Shown in pieces: positions 13,913 to 37,043 of a DNA stretch of 64,000 nt. The DNA comes from a virus. The notes beneath the pieces are model-generated. The model made no database searches. It had not been told where the DNA came from and worked only from the letters and a program-made list of their open reading frames with translations. The position numbers were made by a program, and so were the translations under genes. Within the stretch, counting starts at the first letter, position 1. Every line of letters starts with the position of its first letter. Location: positions 23,672 through 87,671 of IMG/VR virus record IMGVR_UViG_3300025122_006404, one strand, 5' to 3'.

Positions 13913-13924
13913 GAATAGTTTTTT

Positions 13925-14512
13925 TTACTGATTCAGAGTTTCTTGAATCAGTGTGTCAATCCAGGTGGAGCTAAATCCTTGTAATCTAGTGTGTAGTACC
14001 ATCTCATCAGTAATAAAAAAGAAAGTCGGCCATGCTGTTAATGGCCATCCATTTGTTCCGCTTACATCAATTAAATCACGTGAGCCAGCGAGGACTGGAG
14101 AGGTAATCCCATAGGTGTCACACCAATAGGTGATATCTGCTGCAGTGGGAGGGTCTCCCGTAGAATTTTCAATTAATACAGTGATATAGGTAATTTCTTC
14201 TGCATATTGATCTTGGACTTGCTGGACTTCTGCAGCTGCACTGTTGCAAGGTCCACACCACATCGTAGAGAGATCGAGAACAATAACACCACCATAATAA
14301 TCATAAAGAGAAATATCCATCAACAGCTGATTGCTTAGGGTAAAATTACAGGGATGATCTCCAGTATTTTGTGAGCAGGATTCCCACGACGCCCAGGGAT
14401 AAGGATCAGCTACGGGAGTATTGCTGGTATCGCCAGATGTCAGACTAGGCTTGCATCCCCCGAGTCCCATTATCATTAGTAGTCCCCAGTTTATCAAATT
14501 ATTTTTTAACAT
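13925..14512 (-). CDS. TlpA/redoxin-family thioredoxin-like lipoprotein
   Basis: LGGC lipobox, DLSTMWCGPC, AWPTFF. Confidence 0.85.
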   Translation of the reverse strand: MLKNNLINWGLLMIMGLGGCKPSLTSGDTSNTPVADPYPWASWESCSQNTGDHPCNFTLSNQLLMDISLYDYYGGVIVLDLSTMWCGPCNSAAAEVQQVQDQYAEEITYITVLIENSTGDPPTAADITYWCDTYGITSPVLAGSRDLIDVSGTNGWPLTAWPTFFFITDEMVLHTRLQGFSSTWIDTLIQETLNQ

Positions 14513-14537
14513 CTTAATTTCTAGTGCTCCTTATTTC

Positions 14538-15293
14538 TTACCGAACTATCCCAAATACATCATCAACCCAGCCGAAAACTATTTCCTCATTCCACCCAAG
14601 TAGACCGTTATGGACGGTTAGAGTCTCATCTACCACCACAATTGTTGGCCACGCAGAAATTGGATAACCATCTTCGGCAGTAAGATCGATAATGCTTCTA
14701 TCTCCAGCCAAGACAGGGGAAGTGGTCATGCCATACCTAGAAACCCAATCCTGAATTTCTGATGGCGTCGGCGGCGTTCCCCACGATGGTCCATCTACTA
14801 ATACCGTTACCCATAAGAAATCGTAGCCTAAAGCTGTGTAGGTATCTTGATGAATCTGAGCGTCTCCGGCGATACTGTTGCAGACTCCGCACCAGATTGT
14901 AGAAAAATCGACAACCATAACAGTGCCATAGTTGTCATAGAGTGACCAATCATTTCCATTTTGATCTTGGAATGTAAAGTCGCAAGCTTTTTCCCCGGGT
15001 TTTCCGCTACATTCAGTCCACGTAATGGGAGATGGATCTGTGTCCTCGACTGCAGAGTCACTATCACTGTCGGAAGTATCCGTGTTCGTGATATGAGTAT
15101 CTTTAATGACAGAATCATCATCGACGACGGAATCATCATCGACTGTGTCTTCTTCTATGACTGTGTCGTTCGAAGTTTTATCATTTATGCCTGTTGAAGT
15201 CTCCCCAGGCGTCGCGCAGCTTATGAGATTAGCTGTTGTGAAATTGGCCCACGCAAGTGCGGCCAAAAATATAAGTGATTTGTGTTTTAACAT
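14538..15293 (-). CDS. TlpA/redoxin-family thioredoxin-like lipoprotein with D/T/S linker
   Basis: LISC, DFSTIWCGVC, AWPTIV. Confidence 0.85.
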   Translation of the reverse strand: MLKHKSLIFLAALAWANFTTANLISCATPGETSTGINDKTSNDTVIEEDTVDDDSVVDDDSVIKDTHITNTDTSDSDSDSAVEDTDPSPITWTECSGKPGEKACDFTFQDQNGNDWSLYDNYGTVMVVDFSTIWCGVCNSIAGDAQIHQDTYTALGYDFLWVTVLVDGPSWGTPPTPSEIQDWVSRYGMTTSPVLAGDRSIIDLTAEDGYPISAWPTIVVVDETLTVHNGLLGWNEEIVFGWVDDVFGIVR

Positions 15294-15296
15294 GTT

Positions 15297-16910
15297 TTAT
15301 TCTCCAGTGTCACAGTCCGCCCAAGCTGCATATTGTATATCAATTGAACTTTCATCTGCAGGCGCTACAGTAAATGAAACAGAATTGGCTGCGGTGTCAT
15401 ATGTCCAATCTGCTGAAAGTAAACCATCAACACTCACTATGATAGTGTCTTCAATGGGATAATCTGATAAAGGAAAAGAGAGCATCGACATTGAGTCTCT
15501 AGCTAATGTGTCCATAGTGACACTCCAATCTGCAGCGCAGATTGACATAAACGTTCCGCCCAGATCAGCCACGACGTCATAATATCCATCGCCGAACTGG
15601 GCGCTGCCATTTGACGTGCATCCAGAAGGATAATCACCAGCGACCGCATGTGCCACAACAAGCTCGTGAGAGCTTTTCAATGATTGAAGGTGCGTAGAAT
15701 AATCAGAAGGAGTCATTCCAGCTGATCCTCCTCCGTAGGCTGAAGTATTGGTAGAGGCATCAGGTTCGTCGGAAACATATACCACCACTAAGCGAGCCGA
15801 TGCTCTAAAAAATCCCGTTGCTGATCCCGGAGCTGCATCTCCACCAGTAGCTGTGGATTCATATGAATACCACAATCCTTTTTCAATTGGTGCTCCGTGG
15901 TATCCAATCGCATCGACCTGGTTGCTAAATTCTGCTACTGGATCAGGAGTAGCGGGAGTGATTATGTTTCCTACAAAACTGGCATCATCTGTGGTTATTA
16001 GAGCTACTTGATAATCTACTCCAGCACCTACAAAGACGGACATAAAATCTCCGAAATTATTTTTTAGATTAGTCTGATTAGAAGACATAGACCCAGAGTT
16101 ATCAACAACAAAAAGAATGTCTACTATTGCTTCTCCATCTTGTGTAAAATTATCTATCACCCAATACTCATAAGCTCCTAGTGCGCTGTGATCTGACATA
16201 ACAACGGGGTTAAGCGGATCGCTAGATACTATTTCAACATATGCATCGTCTGATAATAAGTCTAGCGGGGTGTAGTAAATTGTAAGGCTTAAAGAATCAC
16301 TGGGGGCAATAATCCACGGTAACGGTCCATTTTCAATTTCGTATTGAATCATTGAAAAGTCAACAGGGACTGTAACATAATATCTGATGTCATTTATTTC
16401 CAAATTAGCATTGCCAATATTTGAGATAGTAATATCAAATGAGTCATCACATCCAAGATAAACTGTTCCTAAGTCATGCGCGGCAGGATCTACTTCAATC
16501 ACAGGAGCGTCACCTTTTCCAGATAGATTGACTGTAACAATTTCCTCGTCTGGATCGTCTGATAAAATTGAAATCGAATTTATATTTGATTCGTAGGTAA
16601 TTGGGTCATAGGAAACTATAAGATCTGTAGATTTTCCCGGCTCTATTTCATTTGAAATTATATTTGTTATGGAATAAACTGACGTTGATAGATTAAATTT
16701 GATTGCATTAATATTGAGAACTTCATTCCCTGCGTTTGAGATCGTAATTGTTTCAAGAGATAGTTCGTATCCTGCATTTAATGATCCGAAATCAACTGTA
16801 GTTGGATTTACATCTATGTCAGGCTCACGGTCTACTTTTGGATGAAGTGCATAATCTGAGCAACTAAATAGAGAAAGAAGAATAACAAGTGACTGAATTA
16901 AACGAAACAT
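15297..16910 (-). CDS. Lipoprotein with two Ig-like (choice-of-anchor D/ASH-type) domains and a vWA domain
   Basis: LFSC lipobox; P.IxVxP..DFG...ITISNxG repeats; VDILFVVDNSGSM; paralog of 10652 gene. Confidence 0.8.
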   Translation of the reverse strand: MFRLIQSLVILLSLFSCSDYALHPKVDREPDIDVNPTTVDFGSLNAGYELSLETITISNAGNEVLNINAIKFNLSTSVYSITNIISNEIEPGKSTDLIVSYDPITYESNINSISILSDDPDEEIVTVNLSGKGDAPVIEVDPAAHDLGTVYLGCDDSFDITISNIGNANLEINDIRYYVTVPVDFSMIQYEIENGPLPWIIAPSDSLSLTIYYTPLDLLSDDAYVEIVSSDPLNPVVMSDHSALGAYEYWVIDNFTQDGEAIVDILFVVDNSGSMSSNQTNLKNNFGDFMSVFVGAGVDYQVALITTDDASFVGNIITPATPDPVAEFSNQVDAIGYHGAPIEKGLWYSYESTATGGDAAPGSATGFFRASARLVVVYVSDEPDASTNTSAYGGGSAGMTPSDYSTHLQSLKSSHELVVAHAVAGDYPSGCTSNGSAQFGDGYYDVVADLGGTFMSICAADWSVTMDTLARDSMSMLSFPLSDYPIEDTIIVSVDGLLSADWTYDTAANSVSFTVAPADESSIDIQYAAWADCDTGE

Positions 16911-16949
16911 GTCATTAATATATATGTGCTCATGCAAGGTATGCCGATC

Positions 16950-23963: not shown

Positions 23964-24164
23964 ATGAAATTTAAAGATTTTCTTTTAAGATATAAAATAG
24001 CTGATAATCAAAAAACAGAAATAGAAATAGAAAAACATACCGATGATATGGAAATTTCTTTCTTAGAGATGAAAGATCGATATGATTTAACGACCGAAGA
24101 AGTAGAGATTGCTTTAAAGCCATATAGAAATCGATATCAAGAAAAAAAGACACGAGGAAGATAA
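23964..24164 (+). CDS. Hypothetical protein
   Basis: 66 aa ORF directly upstream of aceB. Confidence 0.5.
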   Translation: MKFKDFLLRYKIADNQKTEIEIEKHTDDMEISFLEMKDRYDLTTEEVEIALKPYRNRYQEKKTRGR

Positions 24165-24166
24165 TA

Positions 24167-25699
24167 ATGCTATCTTGCTATAGTGAAATATTGTCGCCAG
24201 ACGCTTCGTATTTTTTAGAAGCTCTTTTTTCGTGTTTTCAAGACGATCTTAAATCTCTGCTAGAAGCCAGACAAGAAAGGCAGAAAGAATATGATCTTGG
24301 TAAGCTTCCAGATTTTCTTGAAGAGACTGCCAGCATTAGAGATGATAGTGTTTGGAAAGTCTCTGAAATCCCTCACGAGCTCTTAAATAGAAGAGTAGAA
24401 ATAACTGGTCCAACTGATAGAAAAATGGTGATAAATGCTCTTAATTCGGGAGCAAATGTTTTTATGGCAGATTTTGAAGATTCTCTTTCTCCTACTTGGA
24501 AAAACATCATAGAAGGTCAAAAAAATCTTAAAGATGCTGTTAACAGAACAATAGCATATGATCATCCTACTAAAGGAACCTATACACTAGACGATCAAAC
24601 GTCTGTGTTGTTCGTTCGCCCTCGAGGCTTACACTTAAAAGAGAAAAATTTTGAAATTAATGATAGTTCGATTTCTGCTTCGCTTTTTGATTTTGGAATA
24701 TTCATGTATCATAATGCAAATGAATTAGTGCAGCAGGGAACAGCTCCGTATTTTTATTTACCAAAGATTGAACACTACTTAGAAGCTAGATGGTGGAATA
24801 ATGTTTTTAACTGGGCACAGGACTATCTATCTATTCCAAGAGGTACGATTAGAGCAACAGTCTTAATCGAAACTTTGCCTGCAGCTTTTCAAATGGATGA
24901 AATTCTGTATGAGTTAAAAGACCATTCCGCCGGATTGAACTGCGGCAGGTGGGACTATATTTTTAGTTTTATTAAAACTATTAGAAATCATCCTGATAAA
25001 ATTTTGCCTAACAGATCACAGGTTACGATGATGTCTCATTGTATGAAGTCCTATAGAGATCTTCTCATACACACGTGTCACAAAAGAGGAATCCATGCCA
25101 TGGGAGGGATGGCAGCACAAATACCAATTAGAGACAATCCAGAAGAAAATGAAAAAGCTTTACAAGCTGTGAGAGAAGACAAGATCAGAGAAGTGCTTGC
25201 AGGCCATGATGGAACATGGGTAGCTCATCCAGGATTGATTCAGGTCGCCAAAGAAGTGTTTGATGAAATGATGCCTCATTCTAATCAGATTGAATTTTTA
25301 ACACCCAAAGTAAAAATTCAGAGCTCGGACTTGCTAAAGACTCCTCAAGGAGAAATCACAGAAGAAGGTCTTCGAAATAACATTAATATCGGGATCAGAT
25401 ATGTTGAATCGTGGCTTCGGGGAAATGGATGTGTTCCGCTTTATAATCTAATGGAAGATGCTGCCACAGCCGAAATTTCTAGAACTCAAGTGTGGCAGTG
25501 GATAAGACATGGTAAATTTACAGAGAAGGAATTTAAAAAAATATTAAGTGATGAGGTAAATAATATTAGAGTTCAAGTGGGAAATGTTGAGTTTATCAAT
25601 GGGAGATTTGCTGAAGCAGTATCTCTATTTGAAAAGTTATCAGTAGGTGAAGAGTTAGAGAATTTCTTAACTCTAGCAGCATATAAAAACATTGCATAG
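24167..25699 (+). CDS. aceB: Malate synthase A
   Basis: [54 protein letters not shown]. Confidence 0.97.
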
Positions 25700-25707
25700 G
25701 ATTTAAA

Positions 25708-26952
25708 ATGATTAATGATAAAAGTGAAAGATGGAAAGGAACGAAAAGGGAGTGGACCCAAAGCGATGTGGATCGACTAAGGGGTAGTTTAAAAATAGAG
25801 TATTCTCTAGCACGACATGGTGCAGAAAAATTGTGGAATTTATTACATAGTGACGATCCAGTGGCTGCACTGGGTGCATTAACTGGCAATCAAGCTGTTC
25901 AGCAAGCAAGAGCCGGCTTAAAAGCTGTTTACTTGTCTGGTTGGCAAGTTGCTGCCGATGCTAATCTTTCGGGACACATGTATCCAGATCAAAGTCTATA
26001 TCCGGCCAATAGTGTTCCTCATGTTGTAAAGAGAATAAATCAAGCTCTTCAAAGAGCTGACCAAGTTGAGAGTGTGGAAGGAAAGATTACTCGAGACTGG
26101 ATGATTCCTATCGTGGCAGATGCAGAAGCTGGATTTGGGGGTCCTTTGAACGCTTATGAGCTAATGAAAGGAATGATTGAGTCCGGTGCAGCCGGAGTTC
26201 ACCTTGAAGATCAGCTCTCTTCAGAGAAAAAATGTGGCCATCTTGGAGGAAAAGTCTTAATTCCAACACAGCAATTTATAGTTACTCTTAAAGCTGCCAG
26301 GCTTGCTGCTGATGTCATGGGAGTACCTACAATTTTAATTGCTCGGACAGATGCTAACAGCGCTAAGATGATGACTTCTGATATAGATCCCTATGACCAT
26401 CCATTTATGACTGGAGAACGGACTCCAGAAGGATTCTATAGGATTACAGGAGGCATAGAATGTGCCATAGCTAGAGGATTAGCGTATGCACCCTATGCAG
26501 ATCTATTGTGGTGTGAAACATCAACTCCTGATCTCGATGAAGCTCAAAGATTTGCTGATGCTATTCACGAGAAACATCCGGGAAAGCTACTTGCGTATAA
26601 TTGTTCTCCGTCATTTAACTGGAGAAAGAATCTAGATGATGACACAATTGGCAAATTTCGACACGAACTAAACCGGATGGGGTATAAGTTTCAATTTGTT
26701 ACGCTAGCAGGCTTTCATTCTCTCAACTACAGCATGTTTGATCTAGCTAGTGAATATGAGAAAAAAGGAATGACAGCTTACGTGTCTCTTCAACAGAGAG
26801 AATTCGGCGCCGAGGACAGAGGATATACAGCTACCCGTCACCAGAGAGAGGTGGGAACCGGGTACTTTGATAGCGTGAGTGGAGTGCTAAGTAAAGGGAA
26901 ATCTTCTACTCTCGCACTCAGTGAGTCTACAGAGAGCGATCAATTTGAATAA
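25708..26952 (+). CDS. aceA: Isocitrate lyase
   Basis: [22 protein letters not shown] active site, [21 protein letters not shown]. Confidence 0.98.
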
Positions 26953-26996
26953 TCATAAAGATTATGTAGATATGATGAGATATTTATATCTGAGAA

Positions 26997-27878
26997 ATGA
27001 AGATCAAGATACGCCATCTAAGACAGATAATTTCTGAGGAACTGGAGTCCAGAGAGAAAGAGGCTCAGGAAGAAGTGAACCTTCCAGTCAGTGAATTTAG
27101 CCCTCCTGAAAAAACATTCTATATCTACGTGGTTGATAAAGATGATGCTCTTTATGAGAGATTTTCTTCTCTATTTAAGGCAGATCTATTTGGACATGGA
27201 TTTTTTATTAAAGGTTCCAATCTGATTGTCATCGACGGAGGAATAAAAGATGAGCCATGGTTTACTCGTGATCACATGAAGGCAATTGAGGCACACGAGG
27301 CAGCACACGGGATTGCGGGTCATGATCAGTATGGGATTCTAGAGCATGAAATTGAAGCTGATGAAATTGCAATTGAGCTTTTAAATGATAAAGGATACTC
27401 TAGAGCTGCGGAGCTTTTGGCTGCGAGATTAGAAGACATGAGAGAGGAAGAGCCGACTCCTTTGCAGGAATCGATAGTTTTTAAAAATTTTAACATTCGA
27501 TTACCCACTCAGAAAATCCAGTGTCTCGGAAAATCTATTGTTGTTGAAATTGCTCGAACACCTGAAACCAGGAAAGATGGACTAATGAATAGAATGCAAT
27601 TAGAAGAAAATAGCGGGATGCTTTTTGTTTTTCCCACGACAGACAGGCAATCCTTTTGGATGGAAAACACCTATATTCCTCTCTCCATAGCATTCCTCAA
27701 TGAAAACGGAAGGATCCTTAATATTGAGAACATGAAGCCTTTTGACAAGGTAAATAAATGCTCACGCGGTGCAGCAAAGTTTGCTCTTGAAATGAATCAA
27801 GGGTGGTTTAAAAGAAACGGCGTGACGTCAGGTGACGTGATTGAAGAAATTTTAAATCTAGCTGAAGGAGTTAGGTGA
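26997..27878 (+). CDS. Leader-tagged fusion: HExxH domain plus DUF192-like domain
   Basis: MKIKIRHLRQIISEELE; AHEAAH; GLMNR..GMLFVF..FWMENTYIPLSIAF..ALE. Confidence 0.8.
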   Translation: MKIKIRHLRQIISEELESREKEAQEEVNLPVSEFSPPEKTFYIYVVDKDDALYERFSSLFKADLFGHGFFIKGSNLIVIDGGIKDEPWFTRDHMKAIEAHEAAHGIAGHDQYGILEHEIEADEIAIELLNDKGYSRAAELLAARLEDMREEEPTPLQESIVFKNFNIRLPTQKIQCLGKSIVVEIARTPETRKDGLMNRMQLEENSGMLFVFPTTDRQSFWMENTYIPLSIAFLNENGRILNIENMKPFDKVNKCSRGAAKFALEMNQGWFKRNGVTSGDVIEEILNLAEGVR

Positions 27879-28150
27879 TGCTATTTTTTTTAATTGGGTG
27901 CGCCACCACATTAAGATTTCCGGTAAATTCTTTGCCTCCGGAGCCGTGCCTGGTGCAGGTTTTTATCGTGGAACAGTGGGATGACGAAGATCCAACATAC
28001 ACATGGAATCTCAGGTCTTCCCAGTGTCCACATAAGCAATATCCTGTCTCTTACTGGAGAAAAGGAAGGTGGGAAACCAGTGAGTGGGGGATTTTTTGGA
28101 ACTCCGGTGAGTGGATTGTTCCGCTTAGAAGGAACGGCATCCGGAGATGA
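27875..28150 (+). CDS. Trp-rich small lipoprotein
   Basis: LIGC lipobox; YWRKGRW, FWNSGEW. Confidence 0.55.
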   Translation: MMLFFLIGCATTLRFPVNSLPPEPCLVQVFIVEQWDDEDPTYTWNLRSSQCPHKQYPVSYWRKGRWETSEWGIFWNSGEWIVPLRRNGIRR

Positions 28151-28485
28151 TAAAAATCTTTGAGGCGCTGAAATTTAAAATAAACAGCTCCCTGATGAAA
28201 AAAATCCTCCTCCATCCACAAAATTCCAAAAATACTCATGTATTTCTAAAAAATATCAAGGACCAGTCTGATGGCGATTTGGTATCTTTTCTTGACGAGC
28301 TTGAATTAAGAATAGAAATGTGGTTAAGGTTTTTAGGGGTTAAAAAAAATCATCTTGATGCCAATATAAAAAATCTCGATCACATAATTGATCATGTGAA
28401 TTCATCTCGAGATCTCTCAGATCATGAAAAGAAAAGGGTCATCGATTTCATCAGCGTTGTCTCCGAAAAAATAAAAAATCTTTAA
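28147..28485 (+). CDS. Hypothetical protein
   Basis: ATGA overlap with previous gene. Confidence 0.55.
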   Translation: MIKIFEALKFKINSSLMKKILLHPQNSKNTHVFLKNIKDQSDGDLVSFLDELELRIEMWLRFLGVKKNHLDANIKNLDHIIDHVNSSRDLSDHEKKRVIDFISVVSEKIKNL

Positions 28486-28744
28486 AATCCCATGTTGTCA
28501 TAATCAATCTAGCTAGATGTTTTAAAATAAACATAGGATTATATGAAAGTACATCTTCCGAGATTTCCTGGTCTTGCTTTTGTTTCTTTGTTGCTAGCAA
28601 TTTGTCTCTGGGTATATGTCGTAATGGAAAAAGAAAAGATAAAAACACAAGAGCGAGATAGCTTTTCCTCTTCATCCCAGCAAAGAGATAGGTAAGCTGG
28701 ATTAATTTATTATATTGAAGGTATATTTATACTTGAGGTAAGAG

Positions 28745-29059
28745 ATGAAGCTCACTGAGTCTCAGATTAGAAGAATCGTCCAGCAAGAGATAAAAAGAAT
28801 TTTTGAACTGGAACGCTATGTTGGTAAGACAGTCGATGAGATTGTTAAGTCTCCCTCACCTCCCCAGGCTTTTCCGGGTGTCGTAGGTGCACCTGTTGCA
28901 GAGAAAAGACCCTGCACCACCATTAACGCTGAGATCTCGAGCACGGAAGCACAGATTGCAGCTCTGACGAGCTCTAACGCGGATCAAGCTAAAAAACCTG
29001 CCCTACAACAAGCTCTCGATGATCTTAAAAGCGAACAGCAAACCTGTTCGGGCGACTAG
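28745..29059 (+). CDS. Leader-tagged hypothetical protein
   Basis: MKLTESQIRRIVQQEIKRIFE; ATATTTAT at 28723. Confidence 0.75.
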   Translation: MKLTESQIRRIVQQEIKRIFELERYVGKTVDEIVKSPSPPQAFPGVVGAPVAEKRPCTTINAEISSTEAQIAALTSSNADQAKKPALQQALDDLKSEQQTCSGD

Positions 29060-29084
29060 ATAATTTTACGAGAAAGAGCATTTC

Positions 29085-29330
29085 ATGATATTTATGAATA
29101 GCATGGATCTTAGCATGTTAAAATTCAAACCAGGTGATTTACTTAGGGTGAAATTTTCGATGGGTCAGATTGAATCCTGTTTGACTCCCTCTATTCTAGT
29201 GCTTGAGATCCGAGATAGATTAGACTTGCTAGCTCACGTAAGTGTTCCCCACTACGTGATTTTTGACAAAGGCGGTGTAAGTGAAATAAGTGCCAGCATC
29301 TCTCACAGTCTAATGGAAAAAATTGTCTAA
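29085..29330 (+). CDS. Small xGDLV-family protein
   Basis: FKPGDLL. Confidence 0.6.
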   Translation: MIFMNSMDLSMLKFKPGDLLRVKFSMGQIESCLTPSILVLEIRDRLDLLAHVSVPHYVIFDKGGVSEISASISHSLMEKIV

Positions 29331-29666
29331 ATGATGTATTGGCTTTTAGTATTTTTGAGCGCCTGTTCTCTCAAGCTAAATATTGCAGGTAAGAATTTTA
29401 TCGCTAGTGAGAGTCTCTGCATTGACGGAGCGATGGTAAATATCGATGCAGCGGGATGTGAGTCTCTTTACTTTGGTGTTATTCCTCGAGATAACACCGT
29501 AAAAATTCGGTGCACATATTCTCCTAAAGAGAATTACTGGACGCAGTCCAGTTTTTATGCCACACCAAAAGATGCACAGACTTTAAATTTTTGGACCCTG
29601 ATCTGTATTGATCCTCTCGTAAATCTATATGCGGTCTCACCGCCTATTAGATTAAAAAATGAGTAG
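29331..29666 (+). CDS. Cys-containing lipoprotein
   Basis: LSAC lipobox. Confidence 0.6.
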   Translation: MMYWLLVFLSACSLKLNIAGKNFIASESLCIDGAMVNIDAAGCESLYFGVIPRDNTVKIRCTYSPKENYWTQSSFYATPKDAQTLNFWTLICIDPLVNLYAVSPPIRLKNE

Positions 29667-29733
29667 CTCGGTGATATAGTATTAAGGTCGTCTTTCTATT
29701 TTATAGAGAAGGTATAATTCTTAGGAGAATAAA

Positions 29734-29961
29734 ATGACTGAACATAAATTTATCGGGTGGCTGCAGAAATATCTTGATCACAATTATGATAAAGTGCTCA
29801 ATGAAAGGCAAGTCAACCTAATTAGAAGAACTTTACTCACAGTCCGTGAGACTGATACTGATGATATCTTGGATAAAAAACCGATTGATCGTGCGATTGA
29901 AGGGCTCGAAGAAGAGTACGAAGATGAAATTGAACTTTATGAGACTTTCGGCGGGGACTAG
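29734..29961 (+). CDS. Hypothetical protein
   Basis: AGGAG RBS; TATAAT upstream. Confidence 0.6.
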   Translation: MTEHKFIGWLQKYLDHNYDKVLNERQVNLIRRTLLTVRETDTDDILDKKPIDRAIEGLEEEYEDEIELYETFGGD

Positions 29962-30044
29962 CAGGATCGAGTTCTCAGACAATGACTATAAGCAATATAA
30001 CTTTATAGATCCTAAATATTACTATAACGGAATACTAAAGATTC

Positions 30045-30899
30045 GTGAACTCTAATTTTTCATCATTGCGTCAATTTGTGAGCGAGGTTCTAAGAGAATC
30101 TAAGTATTCTGGAATGTCGATAGAGGATATTCTCTCCTATTTTGAGGGTTTTGGAAACAATACATGGATATTTTTTGACACAGAGACAACCGGATTGCCA
30201 AAAACTGTACATACAGGACAGATAACAGAGATAGCAGCAGTTGCTATAAATCCTAAAAACTGGAACGACGAGGCTGAGGTCCTGGGCAAGTTTAATGAGA
30301 AGATAGTATTAAACCCCCAGACGATTGCAACCATCGAGAAACAGAAAACAGATGCAGAAAAAAAATCAAGGTCGAGTCGGGAGTGGACCATAGAAAAAGC
30401 TCTCGATGTCACAAGATATCATGAGTGGGATAGAGACTATAAAGACGAACAGGAAGTAATCAAAGGATTTATAGAGTTTGTTCAGTCATTTCCAGGTCCA
30501 GTTCTTGTCGCACAAAATGCTTCATTCGATATGAAGTGGATTTTTGCAAGATCACAAATGGAAATGAACAGGTATCCCATAATAGATACAATGAGAATTA
30601 TGCAGCTCTTTCTCATACCACTTCTTAGAACCCTTAGAGATCCACCTTACGATGATTCTGAGGCTGCTGAATTTTTATCAAAAATTAAGCGAGGGAGAAG
30701 GTATAGTGCATCTCAAGGAGTAGTGGCCGGTGCGTATGGTATATCCACTGATGACTGGCACAGCGCGCTAGCAGACGTTAAAATGTTAATGAGCATGCTA
30801 GAGCATGTTGTCAAGACCCTGCGTGGGGGAAGAGATATCGATATAAGCAAGCAACATGGCAGTGCTGCATCCTATTTTTCCCGGCAGAAGAAAAGATAA
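30045..30899 (+). CDS. DEDDh 3'-5' exonuclease (DnaQ-like) with leader-like N-terminus
   Basis: FFDTETTG, QNASFD, HSALADV; SLRQFVSEVLRE. Confidence 0.88.
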   Translation: MNSNFSSLRQFVSEVLRESKYSGMSIEDILSYFEGFGNNTWIFFDTETTGLPKTVHTGQITEIAAVAINPKNWNDEAEVLGKFNEKIVLNPQTIATIEKQKTDAEKKSRSSREWTIEKALDVTRYHEWDRDYKDEQEVIKGFIEFVQSFPGPVLVAQNASFDMKWIFARSQMEMNRYPIIDTMRIMQLFLIPLLRTLRDPPYDDSEAAEFLSKIKRGRRYSASQGVVAGAYGISTDDWHSALADVKMLMSMLEHVVKTLRGGRDIDISKQHGSAASYFSRQKKR

Positions 30900-30922
30900 A
30901 CAATAATATCTGAGGAGACTTT

Positions 30923-31117
30923 ATGAAAAAATTTGTAGACTCATGCCACCACCTGATAGATTCTCTTTTTTTGGGATCATATAGATTGATGTGGTGGGGG
31001 GTGTTTGGTTTGATCTGGATGGATGGAATCATATGTGGGATCTGGCTTCTTCCTTTAATTTTAGAAGCTTTCGGTGTTACTCCTGATCCCGCTTATTTTC
31101 CACTACCTCCCTTGTAA
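30923..31117 (+). CDS. Small membrane protein
   Basis: GAGGAG RBS; hydrophobic core. Confidence 0.55.
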   Translation: MKKFVDSCHHLIDSLFLGSYRLMWWGVFGLIWMDGIICGIWLLPLILEAFGVTPDPAYFPLPPL

Positions 31118-31164
31118 AATTTAAAATAAGGAGATAAAATAAGTAAAAAGGAAATATAGATGGC

Positions 31165-31968
31165 ATGTCGTATTTAGGATTAGTTAGAAGTATTTGTAGA
31201 GATTACTTGCCTCAAGTAACAGCCGCTCCTGCTATTTTAGAAATTGGCGTAGATAAAGGACAATCTATGCTTCCCATTGTTCAAAATGTGGCGTACAAAT
31301 TTGATAATTTTGTATGTATGGGTATTGATATTTTAATACAGCTTGATCTAGTAGAGCAGATTAGTCAATTTGAAAATGTCTCTATCTATGGGCTAGATGA
31401 TTTAACAGGTCGTGATGTCATCTTGATTCAAGAAAATAGCTTATCGTGGCTCTCCCGTCATGTAAGTGTGGCTACTTCGAATTCACCATATGCAACGAAG
31501 TTTGATTTAGTTTTTATAGATGGTGATCACAATTATCACACAGTTTTAAATGAGTTGAAGCTAGTTCAGAATTTTCTTAAACCTACGTCACTTATCATTT
31601 GCGATGATTATGGTGGGCGATGGTCTGAAAAAGATCTTTTTTATTCTGAAAGAGAAGAATATAAATCAGTTGACATAGCTACACCGAGACAAGAAAGTGA
31701 AAAACAGGGAGTTAAGCCCGCCATAGATGATTTTATCGCTTCTTCACTGTGGGAAGGGAAGTCTTATAATGACATGGCGGCAATTATACTTTATCGCGAA
31801 GATGTCTGGCAGCCCATCCACCGCATCTCACCACCCGGAACGCTATTGCGAGACTGCAAATTTAAAGTTGAGCGGCTGGAGAGATCGAATCACTCAATGC
31901 CAGACTCCCCGGTTTTAAGGAATACTAGGTCTTTTCCATCTCCAGTTGTAAAATTTAAAAGCCTATAG
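31165..31968 (+). CDS. Class I SAM-dependent methyltransferase (Methyltransf_24-like)
   Basis: LEIGVDKG, FDLVFIDGDHNY, IICDD; TTGTAA-N17-TAAAAT at 31112-31140. Confidence 0.85.
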   Translation: MSYLGLVRSICRDYLPQVTAAPAILEIGVDKGQSMLPIVQNVAYKFDNFVCMGIDILIQLDLVEQISQFENVSIYGLDDLTGRDVILIQENSLSWLSRHVSVATSNSPYATKFDLVFIDGDHNYHTVLNELKLVQNFLKPTSLIICDDYGGRWSEKDLFYSEREEYKSVDIATPRQESEKQGVKPAIDDFIASSLWEGKSYNDMAAIILYREDVWQPIHRISPPGTLLRDCKFKVERLERSNHSMPDSPVLRNTRSFPSPVVKFKSL

Positions 31969-31984
31969 TAAAATTTAAATAGGA

Positions 31985-32188
31985 ATGGAAGACTTTGAAA
32001 TCGGACAGCGTATTTGGTGCGTAACTGTCAACGGTAAGATCATTAAAGGAAAAATCCTCGATTTCTATCCTAATGATGACCAGGGTCCAGCTGTGAGCTT
32101 GATTGATGAAAGTACCGGATCTTTCCGAGTAGTTCTATTAGAGACATGTTCACTAACTCGAATTTCTAAGTCGAGAAAGAAAAAATAA
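31985..32188 (+). CDS. Small xGDLV-family protein
   Basis: FEIGQRI; promoter TTGTAA-N17-TAAAAT at 31946-31974. Confidence 0.65.
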   Translation: MEDFEIGQRIWCVTVNGKIIKGKILDFYPNDDQGPAVSLIDESTGSFRVVLLETCSLTRISKSRKKK

Positions 32189-32189
32189 A

Positions 32190-32759
32190 ATGAATCATAT
32201 ATGGAAATTTGATGAATGGAAAGATCTTGAGCTTCATTCTGTTAAAGATAAGATTTTAAATATAAGTGCTAATTCACTGAGGCTCGGTGATCTTACAGTT
32301 AGAGACCTCTGCTTATTGGCATCCTCTAATAAAACTCCCGTTGGTCTTTACGTTTTTTCTGACACCCGTGAGGTTCTTTATGCTGGAAAAACCCATGGAA
32401 GGTCTCTCCATGAAAGGATGATAAGTCATATTGATCACAGAGATCCTATTGCTGGATCTCCACATCTTGCTCGGTTAGCACAGTCATTAGTTAAATTAGG
32501 AGATGCTCTTTCGGGGTCGGAAGCTGTTGAAAGAATTCTTGATATGAAAACAATATGGCTGCCTATTCCTTCCAGTGTGTGCTCTCATGGGAATCATAAA
32601 AAATTTATTGCAATGGTTGAAAGACGTTTATTGTGGCACGGATGTCTTGATCCTAAATACAATTCTCCTCGAGTAAAAAGAAACGATACATTTTCTATTA
32701 AAGGAAGGAGATATGATCTGACTCCAGAGACAGCTTTAGGATCTGTATCTTTAATTTAA
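32190..32759 (+). CDS. GIY-YIG-like nuclease
   Basis: GLYVF...LYAGKT...LHERM...H...E...PKYN. Confidence 0.65.
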   Translation: MNHIWKFDEWKDLELHSVKDKILNISANSLRLGDLTVRDLCLLASSNKTPVGLYVFSDTREVLYAGKTHGRSLHERMISHIDHRDPIAGSPHLARLAQSLVKLGDALSGSEAVERILDMKTIWLPIPSSVCSHGNHKKFIAMVERRLLWHGCLDPKYNSPRVKRNDTFSIKGRRYDLTPETALGSVSLI

Positions 32760-32773
32760 AATCAGAAGTTTCT

Positions 32774-32947
32774 TTAAAGACAGGAGATCTCGTTTCTCTT
32801 ACTAATAACGAAGTGATAGGATTGGTAGTCTATAAACATCCTACAAAGGAAGTTGCCCAAATACTCTGGTCTAATTTGAATTCTACTTGGGAACCTTGTA
32901 AAAAGGTTAAACTGATAGCAAGACTTAAAGCAGATGTATCGACTTAA
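32774..32947 (+). pseudogene. xGDLV-family reading frame without canonical start
   Basis: LKTGDLVSLTNNEVIGLVV...ILWS; in-frame TGA at 32714 and no ATG/GTG/TTG before the motif. Confidence 0.45.
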
Positions 32948-32985
32948 TTCATGTAAATTTTAAGAAATTGAGATAAAATTAAATC

Positions 32986-33231
32986 ATGGATAATTGCTTT
33001 ATTGGAGATCTTGTCGAGTTTATTCACTATGCAGATTTTTGGGATGCATCAATGATTGAATGTGAATCACCGCCAAGTGATCCAAATGCATTGATTACAG
33101 TAGGAAAAAATGAAAAAGGTGTTGTAACCCAGTCATTCGGGGATGATTTCTATGAGGTGTTTACCCGAGGAAAAAGAATCCTCGTTAAGGGTGAAGAGAT
33201 TCAAGTTTTAGCTGGCAGCAGTGAGGTATAA
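32986..33231 (+). CDS. Small xGDLV-family protein
   Basis: FIGDLVEF...EIQVL; ATGTAA-N17-TAAAAT at 32951-32979. Confidence 0.65.
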   Translation: MDNCFIGDLVEFIHYADFWDASMIECESPPSDPNALITVGKNEKGVVTQSFGDDFYEVFTRGKRILVKGEEIQVLAGSSEV

Positions 33232-33234
33232 ATA

Positions 33235-33537
33235 ATGCCCAGGTATAAAGCAGGAGATATTGTACTTTATGAGACTTTTGCTGGAATCAATATTCATGCA
33301 AAAGTAATCAGAAAAACGAAAGATAACGAACCGGGTCATCCAGGATTTGATTTCAAGCTAACAGAGAGATCGGATGCAGAAATGCTCAAAAGAGCTAGTG
33401 TACCGGTTGATCTTGATAACTTTAAGGAAGAGATTAGTTTTGGGTACGACTGGAAAATAAAAAAAGTAATTGAGAGGGCTCCGAGAAAAAACTCTAAAGG
33501 AAAAAGGCGTAGAATAGTTAGGAATTCTAAAAAGTGA
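33235..33537 (+). CDS. xGDLV-family protein with basic tail
   Basis: YKAGDIV. Confidence 0.65.
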   Translation: MPRYKAGDIVLYETFAGINIHAKVIRKTKDNEPGHPGFDFKLTERSDAEMLKRASVPVDLDNFKEEISFGYDWKIKKVIERAPRKNSKGKRRRIVRNSKK

Positions 33538-33731
33538 GAATTAGAATCGGAGATCTTGTAATCCATGTTAACGGAAGAATATGCTTGGTGATTGAGATAG
33601 ATGAATATAATAACAGCGCCAGCTTTTTATCTTCGGGCGGAGAGATTAGTGAAATATCTCTAGGCTTAGCAGAAGTATCTTTTAGAATCCTTGAGCCGAA
33701 ACCTTATGTTCCCATAGAGTGCTTCAATTAG
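33534..33731 (+). CDS. Small xGDLV-family protein
   Basis: MRIRIGDLV. Confidence 0.65.
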   Translation: MRIRIGDLVIHVNGRICLVIEIDEYNNSASFLSSGGEISEISLGLAEVSFRILEPKPYVPIECFN

Positions 33732-33819
33732 GGATGTTACCGGGATCTAGAAGAAGTTTTTTATTTTATATTGAATAAATTAGCCCTCTCATGCTTATAA
33801 TATATTAGGAGTTAATAAA

Positions 33820-34170
33820 ATGATTATTACGTTTATGCTAGCATCGCTTCTTGGATGCACTGCTCATGCTCATGTGTCGGGACCCCCGCCATCTGTTGCT
33901 ACCTCAACTGTTAGCGTGTCAAGCAGTTGGACATGGGTACCGGGTCACTGGACCTATTTGAAGGTCGGATCCCGATCTCATACTGTCTACCGTCAACACA
34001 AATGGATTTCAGGCTACTGGACTCACGCGCAGCGAGGAAAGTCTTATAGAACTCGAGATCAAGGCCCACCGCCACCGAGAGCCCATGCTGGAGCTCGATG
34101 GATCCCGGGACACTGGCAAGGCCACGGACATCACCGACGCTGGGTAGACGGTCGATGGGTCCGGCGCTAG
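33820..34170 (+). CDS. WxxGxW-repeat lipoprotein
   Basis: LLGC lipobox; WVPGHW, WISGYW, WIPGHW, WVDGRW. Confidence 0.8.
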   Translation: MIITFMLASLLGCTAHAHVSGPPPSVATSTVSVSSSWTWVPGHWTYLKVGSRSHTVYRQHKWISGYWTHAQRGKSYRTRDQGPPPPRAHAGARWIPGHWQGHGHHRRWVDGRWVRR

Positions 34171-34209
34171 TATTCTTTAATATTTTCTAGGAAATTAGAG
34201 GAGAATCGC

Positions 34210-34401
34210 ATAGATATCCTTGTGAAAAATAAGGACGACAAGTGCTATGTGGTGGACGAGAAGGAAAATATAATAAATGTTTTTTTCCAAAAAGAAGACT
34301 TAATCAATTATTTAGCTGAGATTAAGCTAGAATATTCGGAAAAATATAGAGCCTTTATTAGAATAGATCCTTCTGCCAAGCGGGAAAAAATATCTAAATA
34401 A
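34210..34401 (+). CDS. Small ORF, possible ATA start (or GTG 34222)
   Basis: AGGAG at 34199-34203 is 6 nt before ATA; frame open to TAA 34401. Confidence 0.4.
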   Translation: MDILVKNKDDKCYVVDEKENIINVFFQKEDLINYLAEIKLEYSEKYRAFIRIDPSAKREKISK

Positions 34402-34443
34402 AAAATATACAGTCACATTTTTTAATTTAGGATAACTAACTTC

Positions 34444-34471
34444 AGGGAGATGCTTGTCATCTCTCTTTTTT
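34444..34471 (+). terminator. Rho-independent terminator
   Basis: AGGGAGATG-cttgt-CATCTCTCT plus T-run. Confidence 0.65.
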
Positions 34472-34485
34472 ACTTTGGAGAATAT

Positions 34486-34704
34486 ATGAAAAATATCGGA
34501 ATATCAGTATTGCTACTCATTGGAATTATTGATAGCGTTGAAGAAGATTTTGCAGTAACAGAGATAACCATGAGCGGTGAAGAAATTTTAACAGTTGAAC
34601 TACCTCTTATCTTTTTTCCGTGTGAGATAAAAGAGGGAGACCTGTTTCATTTCGAATACTCAGACGGTGTATCTGAGATAAGGTGCGGTGAACCTGACGC
34701 TTAG
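34486..34704 (+). CDS. DUF3006-like small protein
   Basis: IIDSVEEDFAV...LP...IKEGD; GGAG RBS before ATG 34486. Confidence 0.55.
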   Translation: MKNIGISVLLLIGIIDSVEEDFAVTEITMSGEEILTVELPLIFFPCEIKEGDLFHFEYSDGVSEIRCGEPDA

Positions 34705-34743
34705 GCTGATCTGAATCACTAAATCATAAGAGTTAACTTAACT

Positions 34744-34771
34744 GAGACACACTCTGGTGTCTCTATTTTTT
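34744..34771 (+). terminator. Rho-independent terminator
   Basis: GAGACAC-actctg-GTGTCTC plus T-run. Confidence 0.7.
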
Positions 34772-34888
34772 ACATAAGGAGAAGAAAAATGATGAGTATA
34801 ATGGGAGCATCTATGTTTGCCTCACTCTGGCTTTTAGCTGGAGGCGCAATGATCGTCGTCACTCTACACGATGAATAGATAATAAACG

Positions 34889-34917
34889 ATGTAGATAACA
34901 AGCCTGTGTGGTATAAT
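34889..34917 (+). promoter_or_regulatory. Sigma70-like promoter heading MKVGDLV array 1
   Basis: ATGTAG-N17-TATAAT with TG extension. Confidence 0.7.
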
Positions 34918-34952
34918 GATAGAGTTCCACACGCTACAAGGAAATCATCATA

Positions 34953-35249
34953 GTGAAAGTCGGAGATCTGGTGTGGTATAATGTAGGAGGATCACAAGAA
35001 ATGGGAATAATCCTACAGAGAAAAATGATGAAACTAGACGAATCTTTCGGGCTTCAGGATATGGTCCTTATTCTATGGAGCAAAGCTGGGAAAAAAGAGA
35101 GTCTAGATCCTCGGGGTCTTAGGCCGCGGACCTACGATGAGAATGGTCGACGATGGTCTCACTACTCTAAAGATAGGTCGATCTCCTGGGTGCGAGCCAA
35201 AACTTCAAGCGGATCTAGCATGTTTAAGGTGATCAGTGAAAGTCGGTGA
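34953..35249 (+). CDS. MKVGDLV-family protein
   Basis: MKVGDLV...FKVISESR. Confidence 0.75.
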   Translation: MKVGDLVWYNVGGSQEMGIILQRKMMKLDESFGLQDMVLILWSKAGKKESLDPRGLRPRTYDENGRRWSHYSKDRSISWVRAKTSSGSSMFKVISESR

Positions 35250-35436
35250 CCTGGTTTATATTTGTCCCGGTGATTCCACCATCGGAGTGTTTCTAGGCCC
35301 AGATGAAGATTATTTCTCGTATGAGCCCGAATCGAACGGGACGGTGCATCCTCTTAACCGATCTGAGGTATTTTTCGATAAAATCATTTGTTCTGTCCCA
35401 ACGTTTCAACTTGAAGCAATCAATGAAAATAGGTGA
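35236..35436 (+). CDS. MKVGDLV-family protein
   Basis: MKVGDLV...LEAINENR. Confidence 0.75.
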   Translation: MKVGDLVYICPGDSTIGVFLGPDEDYFSYEPESNGTVHPLNRSEVFFDKIICSVPTFQLEAINENR

Positions 35437-35620
35437 TTTAGTCACAGTTAAAGATAAAGATAGCCACGGAATAATTGTCGGAAGATTTCAAGCTTCACCT
35501 GGCCTATCACGTGGGTATCTAGTGCTTATTGAAGAAGAGATTGAGGAACGTTATAAATATGAGCTCTCAGTGAGGAAAGACTATGCAACCCGGAGACCTA
35601 GTAAGGTTTATGAAAAGTAA
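35423..35620 (+). CDS. MKVGDLV-family protein
   Basis: MKIGDLV from ATG 35423. Confidence 0.7.
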   Translation: MKIGDLVTVKDKDSHGIIVGRFQASPGLSRGYLVLIEEEIEERYKYELSVRKDYATRRPSKVYEK

Positions 35621-35765
35621 TATGAAGGACCCAGAGTGGAGAATTGGAATACTTATTGAATACCAGAAGTGGGAAAAAATTGCTAGAATTTTATACGAGG
35701 GAAAAGTAATATCAATGAGGCCAGACCTTGTACAAGTTTATAAAAGAGGTAATAATTTAAAATGA
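35583..35765 (+). CDS. MKVGDLV-family protein (paralog of 37637)
   Basis: MQPGDLV...GILIEYQKWEKIARILY. Confidence 0.7.
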   Translation: MQPGDLVRFMKSNMKDPEWRIGILIEYQKWEKIARILYEGKVISMRPDLVQVYKRGNNLK

Positions 35766-35992
35766 ATCAAATTATGGATTGGAATGGTCGCTGTCACAGG
35801 TGCGGAGCTGAAACAGTTTTTCACACGATGTCTATATTTGACTGTGCACTTGTTTGCAAGAAGTGTTTTGACAGTGAAAGTAAGCATCCCAAGTATCTGC
35901 CAACTTCAACAAAAAAGCCTTCATCTACTTCGAGAGAAACCCCAGAGGTTTCTGGATCACTAGAGGAGTCAGCGGATGAAGTGGGAAGTTAA
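35762..35992 (+). CDS. Small Zn-finger protein
   Basis: CHRC...CKKC. Confidence 0.6.
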   Translation: MNQIMDWNGRCHRCGAETVFHTMSIFDCALVCKKCFDSESKHPKYLPTSTKKPSSTSRETPEVSGSLEESADEVGS

Positions 35993-36226
35993 AAAATTTA
36001 AAAACGGATGGGGAATCTTTCTAATGAAAGAGTTCTGTAAGACCGACGAACCAGTATGTTATGGGCTTAGCCTAAACAAGAAATCAGCTAAGAAAGCTGT
36101 TGAAAGATTAAACAATCCAATGTACGTTGAAGATCTATCATGAAAAAGAGAATAATTGAAGCAGGACTTTTTATGACTTTGATGATTTTGTGTACAGCCC
36201 TGGTATTTGTTCTAGCTGGAATGTAA

Positions 36227-36421
36227 GTGAAAGTTGGAGACTTGGTACACTGGCTTGATTCTGTTGAGCTAGAAAAGGGATTAGGGATGGTGATAAAAAT
36301 TGTGAGGAAACCCAAGATCACAGACTGCGGATTCTATAGCGAATATCATATTCTTTCTGATGAGCCCGATATAAGGGCGTTTTTAGATTATGAATTAAAG
36401 GCACTAAGTGAAGCTAGTTAG
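36227..36421 (+). CDS. MKVGDLV-family protein
   Basis: MKVGDLV...LKALSEAS. Confidence 0.75.
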   Translation: MKVGDLVHWLDSVELEKGLGMVIKIVRKPKITDCGFYSEYHILSDEPDIRAFLDYELKALSEAS

Positions 36422-36713
36422 AGACCGAATTCCTCAAATAATTGAAGAAGGAGGAGGGTCGTGTGAATATCACGTTGCTGATTCTGATGAGTTTAAACAA
36501 AGACTATCTGACAAGATGAGGGAAGAGCTTAATGAGTTTATCGTTGATCCTTGTGTGGAAGAGGCAGCCGACATGCTTGAAGTCTTATTTGCGTTAACAG
36601 AGACTATCGACGTGGACTTCGAAGATGTTTTAGAAGTTGCACATAATAAGTTTGAAAAGCGAGGAGGCTTTAAAAACAGGATAGTCTTGGAGAAAGTAAA
36701 TGAGATTGAGTAA
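36408..36713 (+). CDS. MazG-like nucleotide pyrophosphohydrolase
   Basis: KLVRDRIP, EELNE, EEAADMLEV, KRGGF. Confidence 0.85.
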   Translation: MKLVRDRIPQIIEEGGGSCEYHVADSDEFKQRLSDKMREELNEFIVDPCVEEAADMLEVLFALTETIDVDFEDVLEVAHNKFEKRGGFKNRIVLEKVNEIE

Positions 36714-36872
36714 TCTAATCTTAGGATTATTTTTTGGATGTAATTCTGGGCTTTACCCATTAAACAATAGCTGTCCAGGCGGAAATGATTGTTGGTGTGA
36801 ATGGGATACAGGGCATCAATATTATCCACTGTTAGATGAATTTGGTAATATTATGTGTGACACGGGGGAAGA

Positions 36873-37043
36873 ATGAAAGTTGGTGATTTGGTACAGAACG
36901 AGGAATTCGTCGGAATAGTCTTAAAGGCTGGAATAAACATGTGGGGTGAAGAGGTGATTCCGTCTGGCGTGCAAGTTTTGTGGAACGACGGCGAGATAGA
37001 AGTTGATTGGGAAGATGAGCTGGAGGTAATTGGTGAAATCTAA
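36873..37043 (+). CDS. MKVGDLV-family protein (56 aa, below ORF-track cutoff)
   Basis: Translated by hand: MKVGDLVQNEEFVGIVL...VLWNDG...LEVIGEI. Confidence 0.75.
   Translation: MKVGDLVQNEEFVGIVLKAGINMWGEEVIPSGVQVLWNDGEIEVDWEDELEVIGEI

Follow-up and report, generated by a model that had tools for sequence, protein, structure and literature searches.

The glyoxylate shunt bypasses the two CO2-releasing steps of the tricarboxylic acid (TCA) cycle and makes a C4 acid from two C2 units. In a 64,000-nucleotide stretch of virus-labelled DNA (the window; positions 23,672 to 87,671 of IMG/VR record IMGVR_UViG_3300025122_006404), two neighbouring genes, aceB and aceA, appear to encode both enzymes of this route, malate synthase A (MS) and isocitrate lyase (ICL), raising the question of whether the pair belongs to a phage genome and what it would do there. 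Our analysis points to aceB-aceA (aceBA) as very probably a genuine phage auxiliary metabolic operon with a glyoxylate-shunt role in infection, carried on an 87.7-kb fragment of a large marine phage whose close relatives are T4-headed. The window makes up the final 64 kb of one IMG/VR record of 87,671 bases (G000), and coordinates are those of the window. We infer enzymatic activity, expression timing, flux direction and phage benefit from sequence.

The two enzymes and their gene arrangement

The first-pass annotation of this DNA, made from the letters alone, had described a full-length malate synthase A and a full-length isocitrate lyase, 8 nt apart and with their motifs present. This description holds: the open reading frames (ORFs) are exact, both products pass equivalog cut-offs, and both align end to end with solved structures. 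Specifically, the aceB product contains all three malate synthase domains in Pfam (MS_N, MS_TIM-barrel, with 370.5 bits, and MS_C; PF20656, PF01274 and PF20659), and the aceA product matches the ICL family (PF00463) with 350.4 bits. MS scores 754.2 bits against the NCBIfam equivalog malate_syn_A (TIGR01344, cut-off 594.5), its residues 8-509 spanning profile positions 1-510 of 511, while ICL scores 749.3 bits against the equivalog PRK15063 (cut-off 562; residues 5-413 on profile positions 19-428 of 430) and 586.2 bits against TIGR01346 (cut-off 275.9). The methylisocitrate lyase prpB models reach 104 and 87 bits on ICL, below their cut-offs of 354 and 353, ruling out that ICL is a methylisocitrate lyase/phosphoenolpyruvate mutase paralogue, and malate synthase G models reach at most 38 bits on MS, far under their cut-offs. 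PHROGs contains no family for either enzyme.

Alignment with crystal structures extends over nearly the whole of both proteins, with ICL residues 6-413 on residues 16-423 of PDB 7cmx (667 bits) and MS residues 1-507 on residues 13-526 of PDB 3cux (630 bits). The ICL translation contains KKCGH, and its catalytic-loop segment and EDQ are identical to those of PDB 7cmx and 6lrp, the lone difference being L versus F just before EDQ; we take the KKCGH loop and EDQ to be catalytic or Mg-binding. The MS translation contains VRPRG, and its segments around RPRG, CGRWDY and MEDAATAE, presumably catalytic or Mg-binding, closely match crystallised malate synthases. The catalytic and Mg segments of MS are identical to those of PDB 3cux, and its LIET aligns with LLET of that structure. 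The view that both enzymes are complete and look catalytically competent is supported.

The two genes are packed tightly with a small upstream ORF (Table 1). The stop codon of this 66-aa ORF lies 2 nt 5' of the aceB start, and the ribosome-binding site of aceB, GAGGAAG, lies within its 3' end; the ORF is probably the first gene of the aceBA transcription unit. Direct reading of the sequence places an AGGA over the aceB stop codon, 5-6 nt ahead of the aceA ATG, which suggests that translation of aceB and aceA is coupled. The DUF192 gene that follows aceA may be co-transcribed with the pair, but none of the viral loci L001 and L004-L055 encodes a relative of it, which places it outside the conserved module. 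The operon had also been described as flanked by orphans, and indeed three upstream ORFs and three of the four downstream ORFs have no Pfam match. A promoter scan around the operon (10 sites, against 13.6 in shuffles) was not informative, nor were terminator-like sites, which fall within genes.

Table 1. Features of the aceBA locus and of the iron-sulfur (Fe-S) carrier gene, in window coordinates
Feature	Position	Strand	Description or evidence
Small orphan ORF, 66 aa	23964..24164	+	Immediately 5' of aceB; no Pfam match
aceB, malate synthase A (MS), 510 aa	24167..25699	+	Pfam, NCBIfam TIGR01344, PDB 3cux, viral clade
Spacer, 8 nt	25700..25707	+	Between aceB and aceA
aceA, isocitrate lyase (ICL), 414 aa	25708..26952	+	Pfam, NCBIfam PRK15063, PDB 7cmx, viral clade
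DUF192 gene, 293 aa	26997..27878	+	44 nt past aceA; N-terminal leader, HEAAH stretch, C-terminal DUF192
A-type Fe-S cluster carrier (IscA/ErpA-like), 111 aa	58200..58535	+	Pfam Fe-S_biosyn; NCBIfam TIGR00049

Relatives, phylogeny and published systems

Relatives of the window ICL occur at 52 IMG/VR loci, at 56-83% identity. At 44 loci the upstream sequence reaches 1.6 kb or more, and 20 of these have MS directly upstream on the same strand (22 of 52 when truncated loci are included); two more loci have MS at another place. Wherever the genes are adjacent, the order is aceB then aceA. A pattern-based IMG/VR search for MS relatives returned none, and tblastn within the ICL loci then found the MS genes. 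MS is absent from all five long ICL-only records (204-361 kb, CheckV completeness 59-97%). In GTDB species genomes, the highest identity of a cellular ICL is 75-76% (Anoxybacillaceae), and the order aceB then aceA is common among these cellular relatives.

Phylogenies of both proteins, which the first-pass annotation had proposed, place the window proteins within viral clades. ICL trees were built with FastTree and IQ-TREE from 132 rows after three short rows were dropped, and an MS tree from 67 rows after five were dropped. The window ICL falls in a 19-row all-viral clade with a support of 99 in both ICL trees; this clade is nested in a 25-row clade of 24 viral rows and one contig from a metagenome-assembled genome (MAG), L114, with supports of 98 and 94. 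In the MS tree, 23 of the 24 viral rows and L114 form one clade (SH-aLRT support 99), within which the window MS belongs to a 15-row all-viral subclade, again with a support of 99. The nearest cellular rows are from Myxococcota, Gemmatimonadota, Acidobacteriota and Planctomycetota, with weak support and biased sampling.

L114, the sole 'cellular' row within the viral MS and ICL clades, is an 11-kb contig of a MAG labelled Ectothiorhodospiraceae, and an HNH endonuclease, a phage-type endonuclease and orphans lie around its MS and ICL genes. Most probably the MAG has picked up a phage contig in binning; otherwise the row would be a faint hint of the host. Apparent MS-ICL fusions were seen in three Bdellovibrionota MAG loci, one from Oligoflexia and two from Bacteriovoracaceae, in which the two coding regions share a frame with no stop between them (L072:2414-5149, L113:2363-5152 and L120:2390-5164; 1084, 1001 and 977 aa).

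A single origin of all phage ICLs is not supported, because a 43-row clade recovered by FastTree (42 of the 53 viral rows, support 85) is absent from the IQ-TREE tree. At least four other viral ICL placements (L029 and L030 within Brevibacillus; L018, L010 and L049; L051 and L047; and phage C48C1) appear to represent separate events or cellular DNA. The MS and ICL trees share most of their subclades; L012, L015 and L051 conflict, which suggests occasional exchange of single genes.

Both genes evolve under strong constraint. Among unsaturated viral pairs, the ratio of non-synonymous to synonymous rates (dN/dS) is 0.036-0.071 for ICL and 0.060-0.111 for MS. In comparisons of the window with its siblings, the proportion of synonymous differences (pS) is ~0.74-0.83, which is saturated, and that of non-synonymous differences (pN) is 0.13-0.16 for ICL and 0.24-0.27 for MS. 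The almost purely viral, well-supported clades and the low dN/dS argue for a long-resident, selected phage operon. Judged by its sequence, the operon is old in this phage lineage, ameliorated to the composition of that lineage, and under purifying selection.

The first-pass annotation had called the pair rarely reported in tailed phages, and the GenBank phage collection bears this out. Of 50,697 GenBank phage records, nine match the ICL query. C48C1 is the single complete and annotated phage genome among them, the remaining eight being enterobacterial assemblies, short records that lack annotation, or 'Acinetobacter phage' contigs with aceA/prpB annotation. The MS query matches four records, none a complete phage genome. 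Phage C48C1 (OQ984149, Kyanoviridae, 156 kb, circular, T4-like) encodes an ICL homologue of 56% identity annotated as 'hypothetical protein' (L001:7995-9236), and, unlike G000, its record has no MS match; the long separate branch of its ICL points to a probably independent acquisition. The implied novelty was nevertheless overstated, in view of an operon published in 2017, a 2025 preprint, and the 22 of 52 IMG/VR loci. Phage aceBA is already published as a kind, and this operon is a further case.

Three published descriptions are closest, each considered here as far as its available text goes, and our literature search found no further paper describing the aceBA pair in a phage genome. The first report of both aceA and aceB in marine viral fractions was a 2013 study of Pacific Ocean viromes, which interpreted the shunt genes as reprogramming energy supply and anaplerosis (Hurwitz et al. 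2013, PMC4053976). As described there, detection is at the level of reads or clusters without genomic context; for G000, by comparison, both the contig and the lineage that hold the genes are defined. The second is TARA_ERS478052_N000008, a complete 179-kb marine viral genome with an aceBA operon and three T4-like structural genes, described as the first such case and interpreted as a trait that raises host fitness in lysogeny (Nishimura et al. 2017, PMC5332604). G000 resembles it in being marine and uncultured and in carrying the aceBA operon, and 179 kb agrees with the CheckV estimate that 87.7 kb is 50% of the genome; the available text of that paper argues for lysogeny, whereas G000 has no lysogeny genes among the ORFs scanned. 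The third, a 2025 preprint, reports that 98 huge phages together have 98 ICL and 22 MS genes, that the two genes lie side by side in 20 genomes, and that MS-bearing phages are solely from marine, soil and plant-related habitats (10.1101/2025.02.27.640493). Huge phages and IMG/VR loci are alike in that ICL is common and MS is present in a subset, adjoining ICL. The preprint, in its available text, treats the genes by fold and habitat, to which phylogeny and selection analysis are added here; G000, being a fragment, may fall under its 200-kb bar.

Viral setting and integrity of the locus

G000 is a virus-labelled record for which CheckV estimates a completeness of 50%, giving an expected genome of ~175 kb, and a DnaE-type polymerase gene is cut by its 5' end. 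Its genes include DnaE (phrog_405, 566 bits), a helicase (phrog_2488) and an ATP-dependent ligase (phrog_114), together with nucleotide-metabolism and related genes (thymidine kinase, dCMP deaminase, a GMP-reductase/IMPDH-type enzyme, a DHH phosphoesterase and metallophosphoesterases). The contig also encodes GroEL, a sigma factor, peptide deformylase, GreA, a TilS-like PP-loop protein, QueF, DnaJ and a superoxide-dismutase domain, as well as six scattered tRNAs and many orphans, with almost all genes on one strand. We found no terminal repeat on G000, so completeness or circularity cannot be claimed.

The tailed-phage context supposed by the first-pass annotation is borne out by collinear siblings that carry a T4-type capsid, protease, portal and terminase. 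In particular, G002 (IMG/VR, 118 kb) has relatives of 45 of the 153 ORFs of G000; its positions 80159-115435 are collinear with positions 60-40608 of G000, the DnaE proteins are 80% identical, and the order aceB-aceA-exonuclease-w40631-w41662 is preserved. Collinearity with G002 is assigned to the left 64 kb of G000, the part in which aceBA lies. G002 encodes a large terminase (75.5 bits), T4 Gp23 (216.7 bits) and a T4 prohead protease (88.4 bits), while G003, which also bears aceBA, encodes a terminase, a prohead protease and a T4 portal (265 bits). Gp23 is present in four of the five long ICL-only relatives. In G000 itself, aceBA is flanked by viral genes, with DnaE, the helicase, the ligase, GroEL and tRNAs on the left and an exonuclease (30045-30899) and sibling-shared genes on the right. 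T4 itself has a family-B polymerase, and the replicative polymerase of G000 is of the DnaE type. G000 is best described as part of the genome of a large marine phage of the myovirus type, with a DnaE replicase and presumably a T4-like head module.

The left part of the window and the adjoining G000 sequence (2820-23035 and G000:C1:1-23671) hold a set of 'cellular' informational and chaperone genes that is unusual for a phage and includes a DnaJ with a zinc-finger domain and a pterin-4a-carbinolamine dehydratase. In G001, a related 332-kb record, EF-Tu and two aminoacyl-tRNA synthetases lie beside aceBA.

The composition of the locus is that of its surroundings, in keeping with the earlier remark that the genes are AT-rich like their neighbours. 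The GC content of aceB is 36.9% and that of aceA 43.1%, against 39.1 +/- 3.7% in 68 ORFs of the left part, and in tetranucleotide usage aceBA correlates with the left part at 0.917, against a mean of 0.937 and a minimum of 0.883 for other left chunks. Near-identical DNA occurs in at least 20 metagenome runs from 19 studies, with at least half of the sampled words present in five of them, one of which may be the run that the record came from. We mapped assembled Logan contigs (rather than raw reads) from four runs of other samples, two marine and two from hydrothermal vents, and they cover all 30 bins of 24101-44100. Pieces 25082-26034 and 25357-26034 bridge the aceB/aceA junction, and pieces 26563-27304 and 26876-27722 bridge the junction between aceA and the next gene. 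Furthermore, G006, an independent 79.8-kb viral contig, carries aceB (64% identity), aceA (78%) and a 63%-identical relative of 56191-58203, followed by DnaE and a collinear block. A mis-join at the aceBA locus is unlikely, and the available tests (composition, the four-run contigs and two related viral contigs) speak against a chimera there.

Several observations weigh against this reading of the operon and the contig. The first-pass annotation had proposed confirming viral hallmarks; these are present on G002 and G003, but terminase, capsid, portal and prohead-protease families went undetected on G000 in ORF scans and in searches with PF03420 and PF07230, and the phage assignment of G000 rests on the collinear siblings and the collection label. 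The GC content rises sharply at ~42,100, from ~38% to 55-65% (42.1-45.3 kb) and then to ~46% up to the contig end; GC at third codon positions (GC3) is 33% left and 47% right of this change, and right-part chunks have a mean tetranucleotide correlation of 0.67 with the left part. Against this, aceBA lies 15 kb left of the change, bracketed by collinear phage genes, the onset of the change is crossed by two pieces (41588-42250 and 41652-42305), and ORFs on either side share an N-terminal leader. Depth left and right of the change co-varies across runs, which, for assembled contigs, is not a measure of read-depth evenness. A mis-join in the right-hand 22 kb is disfavoured. At the protein level, MS starts ~12 residues later than its solved homologues, the 120 closest database ICLs are all metagenome proteins (76-83% identity), and the trees sample cellular sequences with a bias, taking in the best 80 of more than 600 pattern matches.

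The high-GC segment at 42100-45300 stands out as a 3.2-kb island of 55-65% GC in a contig of 38-46% GC, with a tetranucleotide correlation of about -0.13 with the rest. It encodes a 75-aa membrane protein, a 639-aa protein (42359-44278) that has CarboxypepD_reg domains and an N-terminus like that of lipoproteins, and a 368-aa protein that is very acidic and bears the leader, and it looks like a recently acquired foreign insertion.

Proposed role, alternatives and further features

In Escherichia coli, the aceBAK operon has the gene order aceB, aceA, aceK, the last encoding isocitrate dehydrogenase kinase/phosphatase. The pair in G000 shares the aceB-then-aceA order and the malate synthase A and short bacterial ICL subfamilies, with 51% (MS) and 65% (ICL) identity to enterobacterial sequences. 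Unlike in E. coli, the gene after aceA encodes a DUF192 protein, and neither AceK nor an IclR-type regulator was found among the G000 ORFs scanned with Pfam, so the phage copies would act beyond the phosphorylation switch of the host and escape its control of the isocitrate branch point. Phage ICL would compete with the host isocitrate dehydrogenase and convert isocitrate to succinate and glyoxylate, and phage MS would combine glyoxylate with acetyl-CoA to give malate, the net product being a C4 acid from two C2 units without loss of CO2. In a host living on C2 or fatty-acid carbon, such C4 acids could supply aspartate-derived pyrimidines and nucleotides, amino acids and gluconeogenesis, a proposal that fits the richness of G000 in nucleotide-metabolism genes. 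Among these phages ICL is found more often alone than with MS, so ICL is probably the key node and MS an add-on where needed. An auxiliary metabolic role, as the first-pass annotation had suggested, would be the best reading of the operon.

We also consider, tentatively, a broader version of this role, in which aceBA is an old, vertically kept core trait of one large marine phage lineage with T4-type heads and DnaE, often coupled to an Fe-S carrier and with its genes occasionally swapped, and would keep deep-water hosts under iron or oxidant stress in a state of low NADH that conserves carbon. If this were true, rewiring of central carbon would be a lineage-defining strategy, and ICL the node that all these phages target.

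A second possibility, which we rate as less likely than not, is that the operon serves redox and iron economy: with NADH-yielding steps skipped, respiratory reactive oxygen species and iron demand would fall, and a stressed deep-sea host could survive to finish the infection. In bacteria, the glyoxylate shunt is linked to iron limitation and oxidative stress. An A-type Fe-S carrier homologue lies 0.7-2 kb upstream of aceB at eight of the 22 viral aceBA loci and at none of the 30 other ICL loci; G000 has its own Fe-S carrier gene, an Fe/Mn superoxide dismutase C-terminal domain (L002:8515-9219) and three thioredoxin-fold AhpC/TSA-like genes, and near-identical DNA occurs in marine and hydrothermal-vent metagenomes. 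This neighbourhood is circumstantial, however, and the Fe-S gene of G000 is not adjacent to aceBA, lying 31 kb downstream of aceA. Redox economy and carbon supply are compatible, and the data do not separate them.

We consider it improbable that aceBA acts in lysogenic conversion, expressed from a prophage or pseudolysogen and aiding host growth on C2 compounds. A lysogenic role was proposed for the 179-kb aceBA virus in the available text of its report (PMC5332604), and IMG/VR assigns the class 'provirus' to two related long ICL records, G001 (aceBA) and G007 (ICL only). The gene content of G000 is nevertheless of the lytic T4-like kind, and integrase, repressor and excisionase families are all missing from the PHROGs and Pfam matches of the ORFs scanned on the 87.7-kb contig, an absence that carries little weight because the contig is about half a genome.

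Equally doubtful is the proposal that ICL is the working part, providing glyoxylate and succinate or acting on related substrates, with MS as an option that clears toxic glyoxylate in hosts without an enzyme of their own. ICL without MS is the commoner state in these phages, as seen from the MS counts at the IMG/VR loci and in the long ICL-only records, and the huge-phage preprint lists the same imbalance (98 ICL and 22 MS genes; 10.1101/2025.02.27.640493, available text). MS also evolves faster than ICL in phages, as the pN values show, and the tree conflicts of L012, L015 and L051 suggest one-gene exchange. In the window clade, by contrast, the pair is adjacent, its order is kept and both genes are under strong purifying selection, as expected if both steps matter.

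An artefact, whether cellular DNA mis-joined to a phage contig or a cellular contig mislabelled as viral, is very improbable: it could draw on the GC change with its compositionally different right-hand 22 kb, the undetected structural hallmarks and cellular ICLs of up to 75-76% identity, but aceBA has the composition of the left part with collinear T4-type sibling genes on both sides, its junctions lie within contigs from four other runs, two pieces run through the point where GC begins to rise, depths on either side of that point co-vary, and G006 links aceBA with DnaE and a relative of a right-part gene, as the leader links the two parts of G000.

With the auxiliary metabolic reading of aceBA preferred, this operon is a well-documented addition to the small set of phages with a whole two-step central-carbon bypass rather than a single enzyme. 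The basic discovery is in print already, and this instance is an increment, contributing a placed locus that is non-chimeric by available tests, viral clades under strong purifying selection, the presence of MS at about half of the IMG/VR ICL loci, and a recurrent Fe-S carrier neighbour. If the enzymes are active, the operon would offer a handle on infection-driven change of carbon-use efficiency (CO2 lost per carbon assimilated) in marine heterotrophs.

A leader of ~16 residues, M-[KR]-[IL]-T-x-x-Q-L-R-R-I-I-[KR]-E-E, opens 14 of the 153 ORFs and is followed by unrelated sequence in each. These ORFs start at 26997, 28745, 44377, 45707, 47458, 49037, 49919, 51087, 51424, 56191, 61455, 62139, 62946 and 63305, with looser matches at 58541 and 60491; 12 of the 14 lie right of the GC change, where GC is higher. 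Among the 14 products are a protein with an SLT lysozyme domain, a membrane protein resembling TMEM65 and the DUF192 protein beside aceA. The T4 prohead protease cleaves according to the rule L/I-x-E. The leader terminates in an I-x-E motif, and sibling contigs encode a T4-type prohead protease. T4 internal head proteins are described as carrying a capsid-targeting sequence of ~10 aa (PMC9958956, available text), and by analogy it is possible that the leader proteins are a set that is packaged into the head and trimmed inside it. L036 and L046 have one copy of the leader each, and its absence from G002 argues that it is no general sibling trait.

Two repeated words were also seen. The ~21-nt word GTGAAAGTNGGNGAYCTGGT has eight copies in 33539-40024 and further copies at 23656 and 40254, and marks where the small ORFs of one paralogous family start, with M-K-V/I-G-D-L-V as their first residues; in metagenome runs its depth spikes to as much as 505 and it has many 'joints', which points to a word common to many related genomes. 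The TGGTATAATG words, repeated in intergenic DNA at 34900-34996 and 38701-38726, are extended -10-like and may be phage early promoters.

A 1047-aa protein (L003:1236-4379; G000:C1:20236-23379) matches no Pfam or PHROG family and is conserved in G002 (40%), G006 (33%) and 11 ICL loci. An Atlas lead to the viral family DUF6267 scored 0.82, the level of shuffled proteins, and allows no conclusion; likewise, a 670-aa orphan returned only noise rows in Atlas (0.81-0.82, also the shuffled level), one of them named after a toxin family. Finally, positions 11994-16937 form an opposite-strand block on the minus strand, with a locally raised GC content of 44.7%. This block encodes the three thioredoxin-fold AhpC/TSA-like proteins, two of them adjacent and one further off, and a 546-aa protein with HYDIN/VesB-like immunoglobulin (Ig) and weak VWA matches.

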